Numbered from the stretch's first letter, positions 27,848 through 42,457 are shown. The stretch: DNA of 43,619 bases from Vulcanimicrobiota bacterium (GCA_022842865.1 JALHOV010000001.1:1-43619), one strand, 5' to 3'. Program-made: numbers and translations. The notes: generated by a model not told the origin, from the letters alone.

Positions 27848-27859
27848 TAGCAAATGCTA
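27848..27859. promoter_or_regulatory. 12-bp inverted repeat just upstream of the HTH-nuclease gene
   Basis: TAGCA-AA-TGCTA lies 11 nt upstream of ATG 27837 and is a possible autoregulatory operator. Confidence 0.3.
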
Positions 27860-27915
27860 AAAGAAACGGCAGTTTTCCGATCCTTTGATATTCCATGAAC
27901 ACGGGGGGCTAGAGG

Positions 27916-28320
27916 GGTCAAGTCAAGTCAGGAGATGTCCCTGAACAAGCCAGGACTTGACCAGACCGCCTCACCGCCCAGGTCAAGTCAGAGGTTGTCC
28001 CTGGGCAAGCCAGGAGTTGCCCAGCCCGCCTCCCCGCTCAGGTCAAGTCAGGAGATGTCCCTGGGCAAGCCAGTACTTGACCAGCCCCACCCACCGCCCA
28101 GGTCAAGTCAGAGGTTGTCCCTGGACAAGCCAGGAGTTGCCCAGACCGCATCACCGCTCAGGTCAAGTCAGGAGATGTCCCTGGGCAAGCCAGTACTTGA
28201 CCAGACCGCCTCACCGCCCAGGTCAAGCCGGGAGCCCGCCCTGGGCAACCCCGCCCCGTTCCAGCCCGCCGCCCCCGCCGGGTCAACCCCAGGAGTTGTC
28301 CAGGGAGAAGGGGCGAAGTA
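27916..28320. repeat. Tandem repeat array: 60-bp period, about 6.7 copies, alternating A/B units (120-bp super-repeat)
   Basis: GTCAAGTCAG recurs at 27922, 27982, 28042, 28102 and 28162, with degenerate copies at 28222 and 28282. A units contain GGTCAAGT..N26..ACTTGACC. B units contain CTGGGCAA-N8-TTGCCCAG. Confidence 0.9.
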
Positions 28321-28326
28321 GCCCGG

Positions 28327-29571
28327 ATGGTGGATGTCGAGGAGCAGGCTCGGCGAGGGTTAGCCTCCAGTGGGGGGCTGCCCATTGCGGCTGCTTATCC
28401 GATTCTGACCCTGTGCACCGGCCTGGCTGGAGACCTTTGGGAGAATCACCTGGGCCTGCTGGTCGGAGTGATTGCCGGCCTGGGGCTGCTGGGGGCGGTT
28501 CGCGAGGTCCTGGGACAGAAGCTACGCCAGGCGCCTGTAGCTCAGATTGACCAATGGAGATTCCGCTACTCCCTCTCGGTTCTGGCCCAGGCCCTGGTCT
28601 GGTCGATTTTCTCGGCGGCCATCGTTTATGTCTATGGCAAAAGCTGGACCGGACTGATGGCCTGCCTGGTGACGGCCGGGATCACGGCCGGATCGACGGC
28701 CAGCCTGACGCCCAGTTTCCGTCTGATGCGCGCCTACATTCCCGTCATCATCCTGCCCACTGCGATGGCCCTGATCTCCCATCGCAATTCCTCGGAGATG
28801 ATCGTGGGCGTCACTTTCCTGATTTATTGCTTATTTATGCTTTCGGTGGGGCAGCGCAACCATCTTCGCCAGAGTCAGCTGCTGTCCACCCTCCTGGACT
28901 TGCAGGCCGCCCGCAATGAATCCGAGCGCCAGGCCTTGCAATTACGCCAGCTCTCGGCCCAGCAGTTACAGGCCGTGGAAAACGAGCGACTGCACCTGGC
29001 TCGCGAAGTTCATGATGACCTCGGTCAGCTTCTCACAGCCCTGAAGATCAATCTGGCTCGCCTGGAACGGGTCACCGACGGAGCCGCTCTGGAACGAGTG
29101 CACGAAACCAATGCTCTGGTCGACCACGTCATGGGAGCGGTGCGACGGATCGCCAGCAGCCTGCGTCCCCCGCTGCTGGATGAACTGGGGCTGGCGGCCG
29201 CCCTCGACCGTTTTCTGACCGAGAATTGCCAGCGGGCGAGCCTAGAATATCGTCTAGACGTGCCCCGCTCGCTCCCTCAGCTGTCACCCGAACAGAGCCT
29301 GGCGGCCTTTCGAGTCTGTCAGGAAGCCTTTACCAACGTCATGCGTCACGCCGGAGCTCAAAATCTGTCGGTCATCCTATGTTGTACGCCGGAGGAAATG
29401 TGTATCGCCATTAGCGATGACGGCTGCGGAATCGACCAGCAGAAAATGCACTCCTCGCTGGGCTTGCTGGGTCTGCAGGAGCGCCTCCGACTGTTGGGCG
29501 GGTCGTTGACTATACACTCCCAGACGAATCAGGGCACGCTTCTGGACGCGCGCTTTCCGCTGACCCGCTAG
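28327..29571 (+). CDS. Membrane sensor histidine kinase (HisKA_3 / NarX-DegS type)
   Basis: Several N-terminal hydrophobic helices. H-box LHLAREVHDDLGQLLTALK and HATPase_c motifs (EAFTNVMRHA, DDGCGI, GLLGLQERL). There is no adjacent LuxR-type response regulator. Confidence 0.85.
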   Translation: MVDVEEQARRGLASSGGLPIAAAYPILTLCTGLAGDLWENHLGLLVGVIAGLGLLGAVREVLGQKLRQAPVAQIDQWRFRYSLSVLAQALVWSIFSAAIVYVYGKSWTGLMACLVTAGITAGSTASLTPSFRLMRAYIPVIILPTAMALISHRNSSEMIVGVTFLIYCLFMLSVGQRNHLRQSQLLSTLLDLQAARNESERQALQLRQLSAQQLQAVENERLHLAREVHDDLGQLLTALKINLARLERVTDGAALERVHETNALVDHVMGAVRRIASSLRPPLLDELGLAAALDRFLTENCQRASLEYRLDVPRSLPQLSPEQSLAAFRVCQEAFTNVMRHAGAQNLSVILCCTPEEMCIAISDDGCGIDQQKMHSSLGLLGLQERLRLLGGSLTIHSQTNQGTLLDARFPLTR

Positions 29572-36812: not shown

Positions 36813-37502
36813 ATGAAGTTACGATGGCTTTTGTGGGTTGCACTGACCGGGGTGGCTGTGGCCCAGGACACCTCCCACCTCCTCTGGATCATGCCCACGG
36901 CCAGCGGCGTGGCCACGCTGCAAGCCGAGGCTTCCGGCGCGGTGCGAGTGGCCCGGGCGCAGCAGCTCGAAAGCGGCTGCTGGCGGCTGCAACCCGTTCA
37001 GGGGGGCTATCACGTATTGTGCAGCGCCTTTGGCGGAAAGCGCGGCTTGAGTCTGCGCCAGGGCAAGCCCTACCTGGCCCAGGGGCCGGGGGAGCGCTGG
37101 CAAATCCGGCAGTCGAGCGCCGGCGTCTTCCACTTGCAGTGCGCCAAAGGCCGCCTGGGGAACCACGACTGGACGCTCTGGAGCCGCCAGCGCCTGGACC
37201 GGCGCCCCGAGCCGGGCAACTATCTTCGCTCCGACTTGGGGCAGTATTGGCGGGTTTTGCGTAACGATCTGGCAGGCCGCTCCGAGCCCAGGCCCAGCGC
37301 CCCGGTCGTGAAAAAATTCCGCCGCGACACGGTGTTCCTGGCGGACTGGGGGCGCGGCGGCTCGGATGAAGTGCTCTGGAACGAGGTGGACGAAAACGGC
37401 AACACCTGGCTCAAAGTGAAAGACCGAAAGGGAAATCCTTGCAATTGCTACGTGCGGGCCAACTCGACCTGGCTCAAGCCTTTCGACCTGGACAACCTTT
37501 AA
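36813..37502 (+). CDS. Secreted hypothetical protein
   Basis: Start chosen at MKLRWLLWVALTGVAVAQ (signal peptide). No confident domain. Confidence 0.55.
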   Translation: MKLRWLLWVALTGVAVAQDTSHLLWIMPTASGVATLQAEASGAVRVARAQQLESGCWRLQPVQGGYHVLCSAFGGKRGLSLRQGKPYLAQGPGERWQIRQSSAGVFHLQCAKGRLGNHDWTLWSRQRLDRRPEPGNYLRSDLGQYWRVLRNDLAGRSEPRPSAPVVKKFRRDTVFLADWGRGGSDEVLWNEVDENGNTWLKVKDRKGNPCNCYVRANSTWLKPFDLDNL

Positions 37503-38164
37503 TCTAAGTAACCGACGTAGTCCTTGTCCTTGAAGGCCATGGGCACCCAGTTGTTGCCGTCGCGTGCGAAACAGGTGACCTGCTCGACGTGGGTGCGACT
37601 GACGACCTGCGGCTCTTCGAAAGTGGCCACCGTGCCGGCTGGCGTTTCGGCGCTACCGATCTGGACGCGGGCGGGATCGACCTTGGTGTAGTGGTAGGCG
37701 GTGTATTCGACCGCACCCTCGTGTTCATAGTGTTCTTTGGTGCTGATGTTGTGGAATTTCTCGGTGTTCCAGAGCGTCTCGGCGTGCTTAGGCAACTTCT
37801 TGCCGCCTCGCAGGGTGGCCATCTCCTTGGGCGGTCCGCCAATAGTGGTGACTTCGCGTTTCTGGATCTTGCCATCGGCAGCCTGGAAAACGTAGCTGCG
37901 GCGGTCTCGCCAGTAGCCGAGGCATTCGCCCCGCTCTTTGGCCGGGGTGGCTTCGAGAAACTTCTTGAGGTCATCCACGTTCTTGAGAGGCCGCCAGCTG
38001 TCGGATTGGCTGGAGTCGCGCACGACCAGCACGGGTTCGTGGGCGGCCACCTGACCGTCGCAGTCGCGATCGAGTTTGAGGACGGGTTCCCCGGTGACGG
38101 TCTTGGCATTGACCAGATAACTGGCCTTAAAGCCTTGCAATTCGTTCAGGCGTGTGTTGATCAT
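37499..38164 (-). CDS. Hypothetical protein (221 aa), no signal peptide
   Basis: Coding-like, Lys/Glu-rich ORF. The promoter-like motif lies 37 nt upstream. Confidence 0.55.
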   Translation of the reverse strand: MINTRLNELQGFKASYLVNAKTVTGEPVLKLDRDCDGQVAAHEPVLVVRDSSQSDSWRPLKNVDDLKKFLEATPAKERGECLGYWRDRRSYVFQAADGKIQKREVTTIGGPPKEMATLRGGKKLPKHAETLWNTEKFHNISTKEHYEHEGAVEYTAYHYTKVDPARVQIGSAETPAGTVATFEEPQVVSRTHVEQVTCFARDGNNWVPMAFKDKDYVGYLD

Positions 38165-38200
38165 GTGGTTGAAGGTCCCAAAGAAAGATTATTTCTTTTA

Positions 38201-38226
38201 AGAATAGTCGAAGGACCCAGAAAAAA
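38201..38226 (-). promoter_or_regulatory. Promoter-like motif, copy C (minus strand TTTTTT-N13-CTATTCT)
   Basis: Plus-strand AGAATAGTCGAAGGACCCAGAAAAAA, 37 nt upstream of ATG 38164. It shares the outer blocks and the 13-nt spacing with copies A and B. Confidence 0.35.
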
Positions 38227-38238
38227 TCCTGAAAAGAC

Positions 38239-38865
38239 GTGGATATGAGTTATCGCAAAGCCGCTCAGTGGATCGATGAGCAATTTCAGTTAGACGATCC
38301 CCAGCAAGCCCTACACAACGCGCTCGGGGAGCTGGAACTGGTGCCTCCGCGCAAGCGGGACGCAGACTGGCACTACCTGCGCGGCTTCTGCTGCTACGAC
38401 CTGGGACAGGCCGAGGAGGCCGAGCGCGAATTTCGCACCTCTCTGCTACTCCAGCCGGAACAACGCTGGGCTGTTCTTTACCTGGGTCAAACGCTCTTCG
38501 ACCGGGGAGAGTATGCCGAAGCCCTCCCCTACTTCCAGCGAGCCCGCCTCGAGCAACCCTGGCGCGTTCTGAAGAATCAGGAAATGATGCTGTGCTGTCG
38601 CCTCTACACCCAGAGCCGACTGCCGAATATCCAGTTGCTTCGCGACCTGGTCGAGCTTTTCGAAAAGCATCCGAAGGATGCCCCGGAACCGACCGATATG
38701 GTGCTCTGCCTCGACCGCCTGCAGGAGCGCATCCCGGTCAAGCGCCGGGCCGAGTGGTGGGAATGCCTGCAGCGACTGGTTAAGGTCGGCGGCGGCTCAG
38801 GCCTGCAGCCCGTCATGGACCGTCTCGAAGCCAGCCTCGCGCCAACCGTCCAGGCCTCCAAGTAA
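38239..38865 (+). CDS. TPR-like hypothetical protein
   Basis: TPR-like helical pairs: GQAEEAEREFRTSLLLQPEQRWAVLYLGQTLFDRGEYAEALPYFQRA. Confidence 0.55.
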   Translation: MDMSYRKAAQWIDEQFQLDDPQQALHNALGELELVPPRKRDADWHYLRGFCCYDLGQAEEAEREFRTSLLLQPEQRWAVLYLGQTLFDRGEYAEALPYFQRARLEQPWRVLKNQEMMLCCRLYTQSRLPNIQLLRDLVELFEKHPKDAPEPTDMVLCLDRLQERIPVKRRAEWWECLQRLVKVGGGSGLQPVMDRLEASLAPTVQASK

Positions 38866-39729
38866 AGGCTGTACCTTCTCGAGGCCTTTCTTTTGTAAGA
38901 GCAGCGCCACACGGGCGCTGGTTGCTTCACTGGGTCAACTACAATAGACCACGATGGGAAGGTTGCGCGGGAGGCGTTCCAGGGAGTCGAGTGACACCAC
39001 GTGAGCCCCTGGAATGATGTAGGGGTCCGCTTGGCGCTGCAGCTCCTGGCGCAGGTCCACGATGTAGGGATCCTGCCCACCATCGATCATCTCTTTGAGC
39101 TGCTGGGGTGTGAGGCGGGCCGCCCGCCAGCGGCGCAAAAAGAACCATCGGCGAGCGAAACGGTAGCCCAGGTGAATTCCGATGACCACCACGCCAATCT
39201 GCACCAAAGTGGCGCCGGCGCCTTCCACCCATGCGATCAGCTCTTCTAACTGCTCGCGCAGCAGCCAGCCCAGGCCACCATAGACCGCCACCCAAAGACT
39301 GCTTCCAACGGTGTCCAGGGCGATAAATCGGTAGACGGGCACCCCGGTCAGGCCAGCCATCGGCGGCGCCAGCGTGGAAAGGCCGGGCAGGAATTTGGCC
39401 ACGACCAGCACCTTTTCGCCCCAGCGTTGGAACGTGCCGGCGGTGCTGTTCACGCAATGATCGGGTTCGATAGCCAGGCGGCAGAGAGTTCTCAGAACAC
39501 TTATACCGCGCGACCGGCCCAGGCCGTACCAGGCGAGGTCGCCGAGCACGGCGGCGCAGACAGTGATGAGCAAGGCCGGTACCAGGTCCAGGTAGCCCAG
39601 GCCCACCAGCGCTCCGGCCGCCATCAGCACGGGGGCCGCCGGGAAGGGCAGTCCCAGTTGCTCCAGCAGGACGGTAGCGAAAAGCAAAGGATAACCGTGG
39701 GTTTTAAGACTTTCGAGAGTGGCGCTCAC
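38797..39729 (-). CDS. DedA (VTT) membrane domain fused to rhodanese, with an in-frame TGA in the rhodanese active-site loop (candidate selenoprotein); ends at 38935 without read-through
   Basis: The GTG start at 39729 overlaps the FMN reductase TGA (GTGA). DedA motifs: LLEQLGLPFPAAP and AKFLPGLSTLAPPMAG. The rhodanese stops at IVVYCS-TGA (38937..38935). The same frame then continues as PSEATSARVALLLQKKGLEKVQPLLGGLDGWREAGFETV..., ending at TGA 38799..38797 and completing the domain. Confidence 0.6.
38902..38920 (-). promoter_or_regulatory. SECIS-like hairpin downstream of the in-frame UGA
   Basis: Minus-strand CAGCGCC-CGUGU-GGCGCUG (7-bp stem, 5-nt loop containing GU). It starts 14 nt after UGA 38937..38935, so the loop begins 21 nt after the UGA. 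Confidence 0.5.
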
Positions 39730-40238
39730 TGCAGAGTCTTGATCAGTCCTTCGGCGAGCTCCAGGCTCTTGGCGTCGGTCAGGCGCCCGTTCTCCACCTT
39801 GGTGTGAACGGTCGGGATGGCCACTTCTGGATAGGGGACGACCTCGGCCAGACAGGCGTAGAAGCACTCGCGGATGGAGGCCTGGGCGCGAGCCCCGCCG
39901 GTGGTGGCCATAGAGCAGGTGATAATGGCGACTTTTTTGCCTTTGAGGACGGATTGGTAGCCGGGTCGGGAAGCCCAATCCAGCGCGTTCTTCAAGACGC
40001 CCGGAATGCCATAGTTGTATTCCGGTGATACCACCAGAAGGCCCGCGCTGGCCGCGATGGCGTCCTTGAACTTACGCACCGGATCGGGAGGATGCTCGCC
40101 GTCCTGGTCCGCGTTATAAAGCGGGATGGAGGAAATGTCAAAGATCTCGATCTCCCGGCCCTCGGCCAGAGTGTTGAGAACGGCCCGATTGAAGGATTCG
40201 CGCCGCAGGCTGCCGGCAATGCCCAAGATTTTGTTCAT
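39726..40238 (-). CDS. NAD(P)H-dependent FMN reductase family oxidoreductase
   Basis: Start chosen at MNKILGIAGSLRRESFN. LLVVSPEYNYGIPGVLKNALDWASRP is the family signature (PF03358-like). Confidence 0.85.
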   Translation of the reverse strand: MNKILGIAGSLRRESFNRAVLNTLAEGREIEIFDISSIPLYNADQDGEHPPDPVRKFKDAIAASAGLLVVSPEYNYGIPGVLKNALDWASRPGYQSVLKGKKVAIITCSMATTGGARAQASIRECFYACLAEVVPYPEVAIPTVHTKVENGRLTDAKSLELAEGLIKTLQ

Positions 40239-40314
40239 AAGGTCCCGCTTCGTTTGCACAACTCGCTTTGCCTGCAGCGAGAGGGGGCGGGCTTTCCTTA
40301 CAGAAAGCCCGCCC

Positions 40315-40668
40315 ATGATTACTGCCAATCCGGTCCTTTTGAAATTCCTGTGCAGCCTGGCCTCGTGCGATGGCAAGCTGGTCGATCAAGAAGAGTCGTT
40401 CCTACGCAACATCTTCCATCAACTGCATTTGGACGTGGATGAACAAGAGTCCCTGCTGGCTTTTCAAGGGCCGCTGCCAAAGGAGCAGGAATTGCTGGTA
40501 GCCTGTCCAGACCCGGGCACGCGGCGCGAGTTTCTGAGGCTGGCCGTGGACCTGGCCTGGAGCGACGGTGAACTGTCCGATCCCGAGTGGGACTTGATCA
40601 AGGGCTTTTGCAGCACATTTACGATGCGTATCCGCACCTGGCAGGAACTCAACAACTGGCTGAGCTAG
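40315..40668 (+). CDS. TerB-like (tellurite-resistance TerB fold) small protein
   Basis: Start chosen at MITANPVLLKF. There are two copies of the TerB-type motif, CDGKLVDQEESFL and SDGELSDPEWDLI. Confidence 0.55.
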   Translation: MITANPVLLKFLCSLASCDGKLVDQEESFLRNIFHQLHLDVDEQESLLAFQGPLPKEQELLVACPDPGTRREFLRLAVDLAWSDGELSDPEWDLIKGFCSTFTMRIRTWQELNNWLS

Positions 40669-40785
40669 TTAGGCCGAAGGCCGCTAGCCTTCACTTGAGT
40701 TGTGGTCTAAATTGGCCCACTGACAGCACGCGGGAGCTGAAGCAGCTTGCTGCGAGCGACCGCTCAGGCTGGGGCCGATTTAGAG

Positions 40786-40962
40786 CTAGGGTTTCGGGGA
40801 AGGTTCGTCTCTCACCGGACGCGGCGGCTCGATGGCAGCCAGACGTCGGCCCTGGCTGGTTTGTAGTAAGCGCAGGAATTCACGCACAGTGACCCCTTTG
40901 GCGTCGGCGGCCCGGCGCACGCGTTTCAGATCCTCTTTGGAAAGGTCGGCAAAATCATACAT
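40786..40962 (-). CDS. Small ribbon-helix-helix-like protein (58 aa; below the ORF-track cut-off)
   Basis: ATG 40962 with GGAAGG 8 nt upstream. MYDFADLSKEDLKRVRRAADAKGVTVREFLRLLQ resembles CopG/RHH antitoxin-like domains. It lies 74 nt downstream of the caspase gene on the same strand. Confidence 0.45.
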   Translation of the reverse strand: MYDFADLSKEDLKRVRRAADAKGVTVREFLRLLQTSQGRRLAAIEPPRPVRDEPSPKP

Positions 40963-41035
40963 AGTTTCGCCTTCCTGTTCGAGGGGCAGTTTTCCCTTCC
41001 GCCTGATCAGGTCAATTCGTGCTACGCCTAAAACC

Positions 41036-42457
41036 TCAGGGCATCACCTGGATCGAGAGATCGCTGGTGTTGATTGGCGCTCGACCTTCCTCCGCAACCA
41101 TACCAAAGACCAGGCTCCGCCCCCCCAGTTTAGTGGCGGCTTGCTTGAAGTCCGTACCGCTGCTGGCGTGCATGGACTGAAAAAATTCCTGGCCTTTGTC
41201 TCGGCTGGCGAAGAGGAACGCTTTGACGCGCTCCTGGCCAGGGCGATCGGGAGAAAGGGTCAAAGAAGGGCCGGGAATGTCCACCACATCGCCCCCCTTC
41301 ACCAGGGCATCATCCAGTTGGCCGCTGAGGGGATAAAGAGTATTGATTTTGTTTTCTGAACCGTGATTGATGACCAGAAGATAACCAGGCTTGCCCACCG
41401 TAATCTTGATCTGGATGGGCTGACCGACCCGAACGGCGTCCTGATCTGGGTGCACCGAAACGCGCACGGCCTGCGGATCGCGGATGTCGGCGGCATAGAG
41501 ATCCCAAGCAGAGGTGGGCGGCCCCCCCCAACTGGGCCCTGCCGTGCTGCCGTTGCCGTTGCCGAGAATGGGTTCGCGGCTTTGAGTGGAGTGGGCGGGC
41601 AGGTTGGCCTGCACAGCCGGATTGGCTTCGCCGACCTCGATTCCGGGAACCCGGCTGGCCAGAGCGCTTTGTGCGAAAACAGGGTGCTGACGGTCCTCGG
41701 CCAGAACGCTCAACTTGCTGGCGACCTGGACTTGAACGGCTTGCCAGGTGGTATTGGGGTAGGCCTTCAGGGTCTGGCACATCAGGGCGGTGAACAGACC
41801 GGCCGGTCGCCCATCAACGCTGGCCTCGAGAGCTTCCTCGTTGTAGCGGCTGGCCGCGATGTAGCGAACCTTGTCGTGGCTGACGCCGGGAATGTCGTAG
41901 GCGCTGGCCATCATGATTTCACGAGAGCCACTCCCTTTGCGGGCGCGATAGTAGCGAACGACGTCGTCCGAGGGGCCGTCTTTGCTGCTACGCGCGGCGG
42001 TGAAGCAAGTATCGAGAATGCACACGCGCTCCCGGGCCGGCAGCGAGACCAGAGCTTGATCCAATTCCTTCAGGGTCAGGGCGTTGTCCAGGCGCGCGCC
42101 CTGCTCTTGTGTGTCGGCGCAAAGCAAGCGTGGTTCGCTCGGCCCGCTGCCGTAACCAGCGTAGTAGACTAATACGTTGCTGGACGCGTCGCCTTCGCGC
42201 AGGGCTTTGAGAATATTCTGGCGTGAAGCCTGGTCATCCAGCAGAGTCGTTACCTGAATACCGCGAGCGCGGCAAGACTCAGCAAAGTTTTCTGCATCGG
42301 CTCGGGCCCCCGCCAGAGCTTTGGCGGAAGTGCCCGGGTATTTATTAATGCCGATCACAACCGCTCGGTAGGAATGCCCGGCGCTGAACGCGCTCCATTG
42401 GGGAGTTCCGCAAACCAGGAGGAAAGCCGCGGCGGCCACAAATTTGGTAGACTTCAT
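41036..42457 (-). CDS. Secreted caspase-like (peptidase C14) domain protein with C-terminal DUF4384
   Basis: Signal peptide MKSTKFVAAAAFLLVCG. Caspase-fold blocks: YRAVVIGINKY, VLVYYAGYGSG and CILDTCF. C-terminal GQPIQIKITVGKPGYLLVINHGSENKINTLYP matches DUF4384. Confidence 0.75.
   Translation of the reverse strand: MKSTKFVAAAAFLLVCGTPQWSAFSAGHSYRAVVIGINKYPGTSAKALAGARADAENFAESCRARGIQVTTLLDDQASRQNILKALREGDASSNVLVYYAGYGSGPSEPRLLCADTQEQGARLDNALTLKELDQALVSLPARERVCILDTCFTAARSSKDGPSDDVVRYYRARKGSGSREIMMASAYDIPGVSHDKVRYIAASRYNEEALEASVDGRPAGLFTALMCQTLKAYPNTTWQAVQVQVASKLSVLAEDRQHPVFAQSALASRVPGIEVGEANPAVQANLPAHSTQSREPILGNGNGSTAGPSWGGPPTSAWDLYAADIRDPQAVRVSVHPDQDAVRVGQPIQIKITVGKPGYLLVINHGSENKINTLYPLSGQLDDALVKGGDVVDIPGPSLTLSPDRPGQERVKAFLFASRDKGQEFFQSMHASSGTDFKQAATKLGGRSLVFGMVAEEGRAPINTSDLSIQVMP

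Follow-up and report, generated by a model that had tools for sequence, protein, structure and literature searches.

Two kinds of protein that have been described separately come closest to the subject of this study. [quoted passage not shown] Rhodanese selenoproteins of form 3 are tabulated with the motif CxU in a 2026 review of the selenoproteome, the main text of which makes no mention of DedA, SNARE or 'membrane protein' (PMC13188914). Here we describe a gene that would unite the two, a DedA-rhodanese fusion with a putative selenocysteine (Sec) in its active-site loop, encoded on the minus strand of a 43,619-nt stretch of DNA from a Vulcanimicrobiota bacterium (GCA_022842865.1 JALHOV010000001.1:1-43619; the whole stretch is hereafter called the window). 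The gene overlaps that of a flavin mononucleotide (FMN) reductase and lies close to a divergently transcribed TerB-domain gene, and an initial annotation of the window had proposed that the three together form a membrane-coupled unit for the import, reduction or trafficking of selenite or tellurite. After comparison with relatives we consider it probable, with moderate confidence, that the reductase and fusion genes form a lineage-specific two-gene operon within a hot spot of insertions and deletions (indels) rather than part of a conserved selenium/tellurium (Se/Te) module, and that the fusion is a redox-type selenoprotein. Our literature search, which did not extend to the supplements of the review, found no paper joining DedA-rhodanese fusions with Sec, and this suggests that, although CxU rhodanese selenoproteins and DedA-rhodanese fusions are each known, the Sec-bearing combination is new in the literature searched.

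The likeness of the window's protein to each of the described systems is partial. The PA1209-type COG0586 fusions have the same PF09335 and PF00581 architecture and the same length (PMC12893004, PMC10127716); by description, which is the only basis of this comparison, their function is given as unknown and the accessible text mentions no Sec, whereas the window's protein is the predicted Sec form. The best NCBIfam match of the rhodanese part is NF041203 (rhodanese_LYCAU, form 3; E 1.9e-15, model positions 20-122 of 126), with which it shares a single rhodanese domain and Cys-x-Sec in the active-site loop. However, the score of 56.7 bits lies well under the equivalog cut-off of 115, and the window's rhodanese is fused behind a DedA membrane domain of ~200 residues with an invariant CX8C motif. 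Escherichia coli YgaP is likewise an inner-membrane-tethered rhodanese, and its structures (5hbo, 5hbl and 2mrm) match the C-terminal domain of the model described below, but it has two C-terminal transmembrane helices, no N-terminal DedA domain and a canonical single-Cys loop without Sec.

Probable selenocysteine in the DedA-rhodanese fusion

The fusion gene (38797..39729, minus strand) has a GTG start codon, supported by conservation of the first 14 residues among orthologues, and comprises 310 codons when read through one UGA to a terminal TGA at 38797..38799. Both of its domains are recognised by Pfam, VTT_dom (PF09335) at 52.8 bits (cut-off 33.9) and Rhodanese (PF00581) at 39.3 bits. The in-frame UGA is codon 265 (38935..38937, minus strand), within the motif YC-S-U-P-S-E-A, and the frame remains open for 45 codons beyond it, which complete the rhodanese domain. 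This codon is very probably read as Sec, because homologues have Cys at the same position, a hairpin is conserved downstream and the genome encodes selA, selB, selD and tRNA-Sec (438.6, 405.1, 350.7 and 62.4 bits, respectively, all above their cut-offs). The genome's selD gene (G000:C326:6792-7718) has an in-frame TGA of its own and is probably itself a selenoprotein gene, as in many relatives.

The relatives that we compared comprise 40 genomes, or 41 including the window's own (G000), and hold 12 full-length orthologues of the fusion. Codon 265 is TGA in six of these (G002, G014, G015, G033, G035 and G039) and TGC or TGT in the other six (G001, G016, G018, G020, G022 and G024). A metagenome scan with the family alignment as query recovered 80 loci, of which 53 have TGA there and the other 27 encode Cys. 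Sec and Cys have been swapped at this position at least 6-9 times within the family, as read from a FastTree phylogeny of 89 family proteins on which the label switches nine times, six of them forced by well-supported branches; the sister of the window's protein on this tree is the Cys form from the congener G001. The window's sequence at the locus recurs in other assemblies: contigs from three runs of one study match 38700..40691 without differences, although these are possibly the source of this DNA and are not independent, and a contig from a second study is identical over 38902..39162, TGA included.

Downstream of the UGA lies a hairpin of the selenocysteine insertion sequence (SECIS) type (38902..38920, minus strand), with a 7-bp stem and a 5-nt loop, which spans bases 18 to 36 from the U of the UGA, with a gap of 14 nt before the stem. 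Since the local 76-nt stretch, taken alone, has an ordinary fold energy (z 0.10), the evidence for the hairpin is comparative. Standard pairs fill 96.4% of the pair cells in a set of 55 distinct Sec-form sequences, and two of the stem pairs undergo compensatory double changes (11 sequences with G-C in place of C-G, two with U-A in place of C-G). The covariation score was reached by none of 500 column shuffles, and every slid register collapses. Sec forms keep the stem codons fixed (AGC in 52/52, GCC in 52/52 and GCG in 51/52), whereas those Cys forms that have the same or similar residues there draw on mixed synonymous codons. All seven stem pairs form in 38 of 52 Sec forms compared with 2 of 27 Cys forms, and in the Cys-form congener G001 no hairpin is present at the corresponding place. 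The UGA of the window's gene thus bears every sequence signature of Sec decoding, and the Sec in the rhodanese loop that the initial annotation reported is borne out by the Cys of homologues, the conserved SECIS-type hairpin and the full Sec machinery.

Of 8000 candidates scored in a database search for the family, 339 proteins reached E 1e-10 or better; 111 of the best 120 of these have both domains, and the remaining nine are gene calls of 264 or 268 aa that end at the UGA. Homologues are common on replicons of Ralstonia, Paraburkholderia and Xanthomonas (158 plasmid/chromid records, 35-41% identity), and among 301 sampled genomes of the window's phylum the fusion was found only in the 13 of the 41 genomes above that carry it, all of the window's own order. 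Two of the relatives, G014 and G015, have the same frame continuing into a DUF309 domain; the predicted triple fusions, VTT-rhodanese(Sec)-DUF309, are 544 and 506 aa long (L042:3165-4796 and L041:4440-5957, respectively). Six positions are invariant in an alignment of 89 members, and likewise in one of 22: C83, C92, C263, C/U265, P266 and E268. C83 and C92, which lie in a DedA-domain loop, make up the CX8C pair, and the rhodanese active-site loop reads C-x-U-P-x-E-A.

In a confident AlphaFold2 model of the protein (pLDDT 87.4, pTM 0.74), a 47-residue helix (158-204) joins a helical membrane domain to a single rhodanese fold. Foldseek comparison of this model with the PDB matched rhodanese structures only, including the membrane-anchored YgaP domain, and no DedA structure. 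Arg and Lys are abundant both in the CX8C region and in the segment that follows the last hydrophobic helix, and by the positive-inside rule, the only guide used here, the rhodanese domain and the CX8C loop would probably both face the cytoplasm. Alignments disagree on which residue of the active-site loop corresponds to the catalytic Cys of solved rhodaneses: an ungapped alignment with the best-scoring solved relative, 6mxv, sets U265 on it, and two other alignments set C263 there with a 2-residue gap. The identity of the nucleophile is therefore a matter of inference.

Gene content of the locus in relatives

The reductase gene (39726..40238, minus strand) encodes 170 aa from an ATG start to a TGA stop and is assigned to PF03358 at 123.1 bits (cut-off 24). 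Its stop codon shares bases with the GTG start of the fusion gene in a GTGA overlap at 39726..39729 (TCAC on the plus strand). The TerB-domain gene (40315..40668, plus strand) encodes 117 aa (PF05099, 36.8 bits, cut-off 24.4) from a start backed by orthologues that align from residue 1, and a divergent spacer of 76 nt (40239..40314) separates it from the reductase gene. The initial annotation had located the three genes, the overlap and the spacer correctly, as confirmed directly from the sequence, and its family assignments (FMN reductase, DedA, rhodanese and TerB) agree with the Pfam matches. The physical coupling of the reductase and fusion genes that it described stands as well, the GTGA overlap having been read directly, and we infer that in this genome the pair is transcribed together and coupled in translation. 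A 4-nt overlap and a divergent neighbour are both commonplace in bacterial genomes and have no statistical weight alone.

The reductase is, from its sequence, of the ChrR/YieF/PA1204 quinone-reductase type. It matches these proteins over its full length and shares their PF03358 fold, in contrast to its scores against ArsH, SsuE and MsuE, which are far below the equivalog cut-offs. Its closest solved relatives are 1rtt/1x77 (E 2.2e-30), followed by the chromate reductases 3s2y/4hs4 (1.7e-25) and YieF, 3svl (2.2e-23). The structure 1X77 is that of P. aeruginosa PA1204, described as an NAD(P)H quinone oxidoreductase (PMC4051601), which belongs to the PA1202-PA1205 operon and the BexR regulon and is reported to have no close homologue in six other Pseudomonas genomes (PMC4051601; PMC5521831).

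The initial annotation looked to relatives for conservation of the reductase, fusion and TerB genes as a trio, and held that unconserved gene order would speak against a Se/Te oxyanion module. The order is not conserved. Searched by tblastn over 1.5 kb on each side, the reductase was found beside none of the 12 orthologues of the fusion and TerB beside one, that of G001. When these 12 loci were widened to 5 kb and the corresponding locus of the congener G004 was added, a Pfam scan of the 125 open reading frames (ORFs) in the 13 loci placed PF03358 only in G004, which carries no DedA-rhodanese gene. Conversely, reductase orthologues in G006, G009 and G010 (54-59% identity) and TerB orthologues in G003 and G005 (56-61% identity) have no partner gene within 1.5 kb, the check having covered 52 ORFs. 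Neither the reductase nor TerB was found by tblastn at any of the 80 metagenomic loci, 57 of which have at least 1 kb of upstream and 53 at least 1 kb of downstream sequence, and neither PF03358 nor PF05099 occurred (E 1e-6) among 148 flanking ORFs of the 50 metagenomic loci that are free of a nitroreductase gene. In four proteobacterial plasmid/chromid loci no reductase or TerB neighbour is annotated within 5 kb, and the FMN_red genes of the Ralstonia and Paraburkholderia replicons are 29 kb or more away from the DedA-rhodanese gene.

Two further comparisons concern selenium and tellurium more generally. The gene selD is present in 37 of the 41 genomes of the clade, compared with 13 of 41 for the fusion, and being nearly universal it makes co-occurrence with the fusion uninformative. 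Among the ORFs of the window between 25.5 and 43.6 kb there is no other ter gene (TerC, TerD, TerE, TerZ or TerA), no Se/Te-related family and no selenium-uptake gene. A conserved Se/Te unit of three genes is not supported, because congeners carry the genes without each other and their order is not conserved.

Alignment of 37400-41100 with the equivalent regions of G004 (L051) and G001 (L039) shows that the locus is a hot spot of gene-sized indels with clean gene boundaries in these three congeners. The variable region is bounded by the syntenic TerB-domain gene and a conserved 221-aa ORF, and within it genes for a glycosyltransferase, the FMN reductase, the DedA-rhodanese fusion and a TPR protein are present or absent, as is, on the other side of TerB, an ORF that we call X. 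The order in the window's genome is orf221 - TPR / DedA-rhodanese(Sec) - reductase / TerB / repeat / caspase-like gene. That of G004 is orf221 - TPR / reductase (90% identity) - glycosyltransferase / TerB / ORF X / caspase-like gene, with 10 nt in place of the 866-nt body of the fusion gene of G000. In G001 the order is orf221 / DedA-rhodanese (Cys form, 76% identity) / TerB; 73 nt replaces the reductase gene there, and the TPR gene is missing. An apparent remnant of the 3' end of the fusion gene in G004 (residues 287-343) was rejected as the antisense of the end of the conserved TPR gene.

TerB is best seen as part of the syntenic backbone of the genus, and we take it to be a bystander rather than a member of the operon. 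Its orthologues in G004, G001, G003 and G005 are 85%, 74%, 61% and 56% identical, respectively, and only those of G001 and G004 adjoin a gene of the window's operon. The PF05099 domain is common to it and to TerB of terZABCDE clusters, but here it is a lone 117-aa protein without nearby ter genes. A second TerB paralogue, 35% identical, is encoded elsewhere in the genome, the best solved relative is weak (2h5n, E 0.031), and a weak NCBIfam match is to the TerB-like region of DjlA. The spacer between TerB and the reductase contains a perfect 12-bp inverted repeat (arms 40285-40296 and 40303-40314, with a 6-nt loop) that abuts the TerB ATG and could be an operator or a structure occluding the TerB ribosome-binding site. 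The spacer is homologous to that between TerB and the glycosyltransferase gene in G004, where the arms of the repeat are partly altered. Neither a sigma-70-like promoter within the divergent spacer nor a terminator following the operon turned up in a consensus scan.

Several other features of the window deserve mention. The fusion gene and the convergent TPR gene (38239-38865) overlap at their 3' ends by 69 nt (38797-38865). A dispersed repeat of ~125 nt (40664-40790), which in appearance resembles intergenic elements of the miniature inverted-repeat transposable element or repetitive extragenic palindromic kind, begins at the TerB stop codon. The window's genome contains 49 matches to this repeat, in part tandem (for example three in a row on contig C382); its word depth is very high, and it is missing at the equivalent place in G004. 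Adjoining TerB is a gene with a caspase domain (Peptidase_C14) and DUF4384 (41036-42457), which is 88% identical in G004. Further away, a tandem array with a 60-nt period (27859-28338) consists of six overlapping 180-nt copies of 62-91% identity and overlaps an ORF (27935-28318) without a Pfam match.

Neighbours elsewhere and the proposed function of the fusion protein

Elsewhere in the family one recurring arrangement involves another flavoenzyme. At 30 of the 80 loci from metagenomes the DedA-rhodanese gene is preceded, a median of 42 nt upstream on its own strand, by a nitroreductase gene (PF00881), before which come YceI, MarR and SDR genes; a convergent dCTP deaminase gene follows. The full arrangement SDR - MarR - YceI - nitroreductase - DedA-rhodanese, mostly of the Sec form, appears as an operon in ~24-30 of the 80 loci, for example L078:2299-5939 and L083:2316-5939. 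Among loci with at least 700 nt of upstream sequence, nitroreductase is found upstream of 26 of 41 Sec forms compared with 1 in 23 of the Cys forms. In the protein tree the loci with nitroreductase make up a single clade and therefore count as one evolutionary event. The remaining loci are heterogeneous, with pirin in five metagenomic loci and in Xanthomonas, Pyr_redox_2 fusions in three, Zn-dependent dehydrogenases in two, and scattered GST, glyoxalase, DoxX, YceI, isochorismatase, BT1 transporter, SDR and LysR genes. Genes for NAD(P)H flavoenzymes may thus have a loose tendency to lie close to those for DedA-rhodanese proteins, and the pattern of such neighbours points to quinone or electrophile redox chemistry, not to selenium or tellurium.

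Under the reading that we favour, a lineage-specific operon encoding a redox-type selenoprotein, the fusion would be a membrane-tethered selenol/thiol redox or sulfur-transfer enzyme. Catalysis would cycle through a C263-U265 selenenylsulfide, possibly relayed through C83/C92, and the setting would be general defence against redox, quinone or electrophile stress, a setting suggested by the nitroreductase, MarR, YceI, SDR, pirin and Pyr_redox_2 genes that neighbour the homologues. The FMN reductase would be at most a local, replaceable NAD(P)H-linked partner. Taken by itself this mechanistic part is tentative, and we hold it to be on balance doubtful.

A number of points weigh against the favoured reading. 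The relatives are draft metagenome-assembled genomes that are not independent of each other. Our ORF caller was crude, choosing opposite-strand ORFs over TerB in G001 and G004, where tblastn recovered the gene, and the absence of small genes as judged from Pfam is therefore weak. The theme of redox neighbours comes from counts without a background frequency, and since oxidoreductases are common genes it is a lead and not a result. Non-homologous NAD(P)H flavoenzymes do recur beside the family, in the nitroreductase clade, in the three Pyr_redox_2 loci and in the two loci with Zn-dependent alcohol dehydrogenases. In P. aeruginosa PA1204 is five locus tags from PA1209, a proximity read from the locus-tag numbers in two papers (PMC4051601; PMC12893004), and together with the GTGA overlap this leaves room for a genuine partnership of reductase and DedA-rhodanese protein. 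Finally, a Pyr_redox_2-SelD fusion in G015 (L041:2165-4402), the only selD match of that genome, lies two genes from its DedA-rhodanese(Sec)-DUF309 gene, and this is a single hint of a link to selenium.

The strongest of the alternatives, in our judgement nonetheless unlikely, is that reductase and fusion form a dedicated electron-transfer pair, in which the FMN reductase would draw on NAD(P)H to return either the C263-U265 selenenylsulfide or the CX8C pair to the reduced state, the same role falling to nitroreductase or PA1204-like enzymes elsewhere. The overlapping genes, the close upstream nitroreductase of 30 metagenomic loci, the four invariant Cys/Sec positions and the closeness, by locus tags, of PA1204 to PA1209 would all fit such a pair. 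A PF03358 reductase, however, was seen paired with the fusion only in the window's genome, and in G004 the same reductase is coupled to a glycosyltransferase gene instead. The nitroreductase loci amount to one clade, and most other loci lack an adjoining flavoenzyme.

It is improbable that the protein is an ordinary COG0586 undecaprenyl-phosphate flippase with the rhodanese as a regulatory or sensor appendage, the reductase gene having come to overlap it by chance after a deletion. Todor et al. do class DedA-rhodanese fusions as COG0586 (PMC10127716), the locus is an indel mosaic, and the protein shares with YghB/YqjA and UptA a VTT/DedA core with re-entrant helices. Its NCBIfam matches to UptA (43.1 bits) and PRK10847 (44.5 bits) are nevertheless weak, far from the UptA and DedA equivalog cut-offs of 236-300 bits, those of UptA and PRK10847 lying at 236-250 bits. 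The hallmark of the COG0586 UndP flippases is described as a re-entrant helix 1 whose tip bears the acidic Glu39 and Asp51 and a helix 2 whose tip bears the basic Arg130 and Arg136 (PMC10127716). Of these four charged residues only Glu39 is kept, as Glu23, in a MAFFT alignment with E. coli YghB, which has only 23-30% identity and is anchored by invariant Pro, Gly and Phe columns. In this alignment Arg130 becomes Lys112, and Asp51 and Arg136 have no equivalents, being replaced by Ala and Ser118, respectively; other rows of the alignment have other small or non-acidic residues in the Asp51 column. In addition to the C-terminal rhodanese, the window's protein has an extra loop with CX8C, absent from YghB/YqjA and UptA, and the invariance of the CX8C and C-x-C/U motifs favours chemistry over sensing alone.

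The Se/Te unit of the initial annotation is, after these comparisons, highly improbable. In its favour, the three genes are adjacent and two of them coupled, the rhodanese loop carries a predicted Sec, a review attributes selenite uptake to a Ralstonia DedA protein (PMC11422209), enzymes of the ChrR/YieF type reduce chromate, going by the molecule names of solved relatives, and in G015 the SelD fusion is two genes away. These points are outweighed by the scarcity of reductase and TerB beside the 12 orthologues and their absence from the 80 metagenomic loci, by congeners that hold the genes without the full trio, by the lack of further ter genes or selenium transporters between 25.5 and 43.6 kb, by a selD that is present irrespective of the fusion, and by neighbours elsewhere that are redox and electrophile genes. 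Scarcely credible is the idea that the TGA is a true stop which leaves a truncated 264-aa DedA protein and a decaying rhodanese pseudogene: standard annotation does read it so, as in the nine shortened gene calls, but the 45 further codons complete the rhodanese fold, the TGA recurs at the same codon in six relatives and 53 metagenomic loci, always followed by the hairpin, and the genome encodes the Sec machinery.

A bolder and rather unlikely proposal can be made, that DedA-rhodanese proteins are membrane redox enzymes of a kind not recognised before, in which the CX8C pair relays electrons to or from the C-x-U/C site, a flavoenzyme recharges it and the substrate is lipid-soluble. The DedA scaffold would have lost two of the four charged residues of the flippases and gained the CX8C pair, and the rhodanese site would lie on the cytoplasmic face. 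Recharging would fall to the FMN reductase here, to a nitroreductase in a soil clade and possibly to PA1204 in P. aeruginosa. Candidate substrates would be a quinone, a polyprenyl species or a chalcogen adduct, and the frequent Sec would mark the catalytic nucleophile.

The proposed Se/Te module, which would have made an attractive unit to test, dissolves on comparison with relatives, which saves bench effort. For the family, many members are very probably selenoproteins cut short by gene callers, as the shortened calls among the best database matches (9/120) and the TGA codons of the metagenomic loci (53/80) indicate. The four invariant Cys/Sec positions and the absence of two residues regarded as essential to undecaprenyl-phosphate flipping lead to a concrete redox hypothesis for DedA-rhodanese proteins, with defined point mutants.

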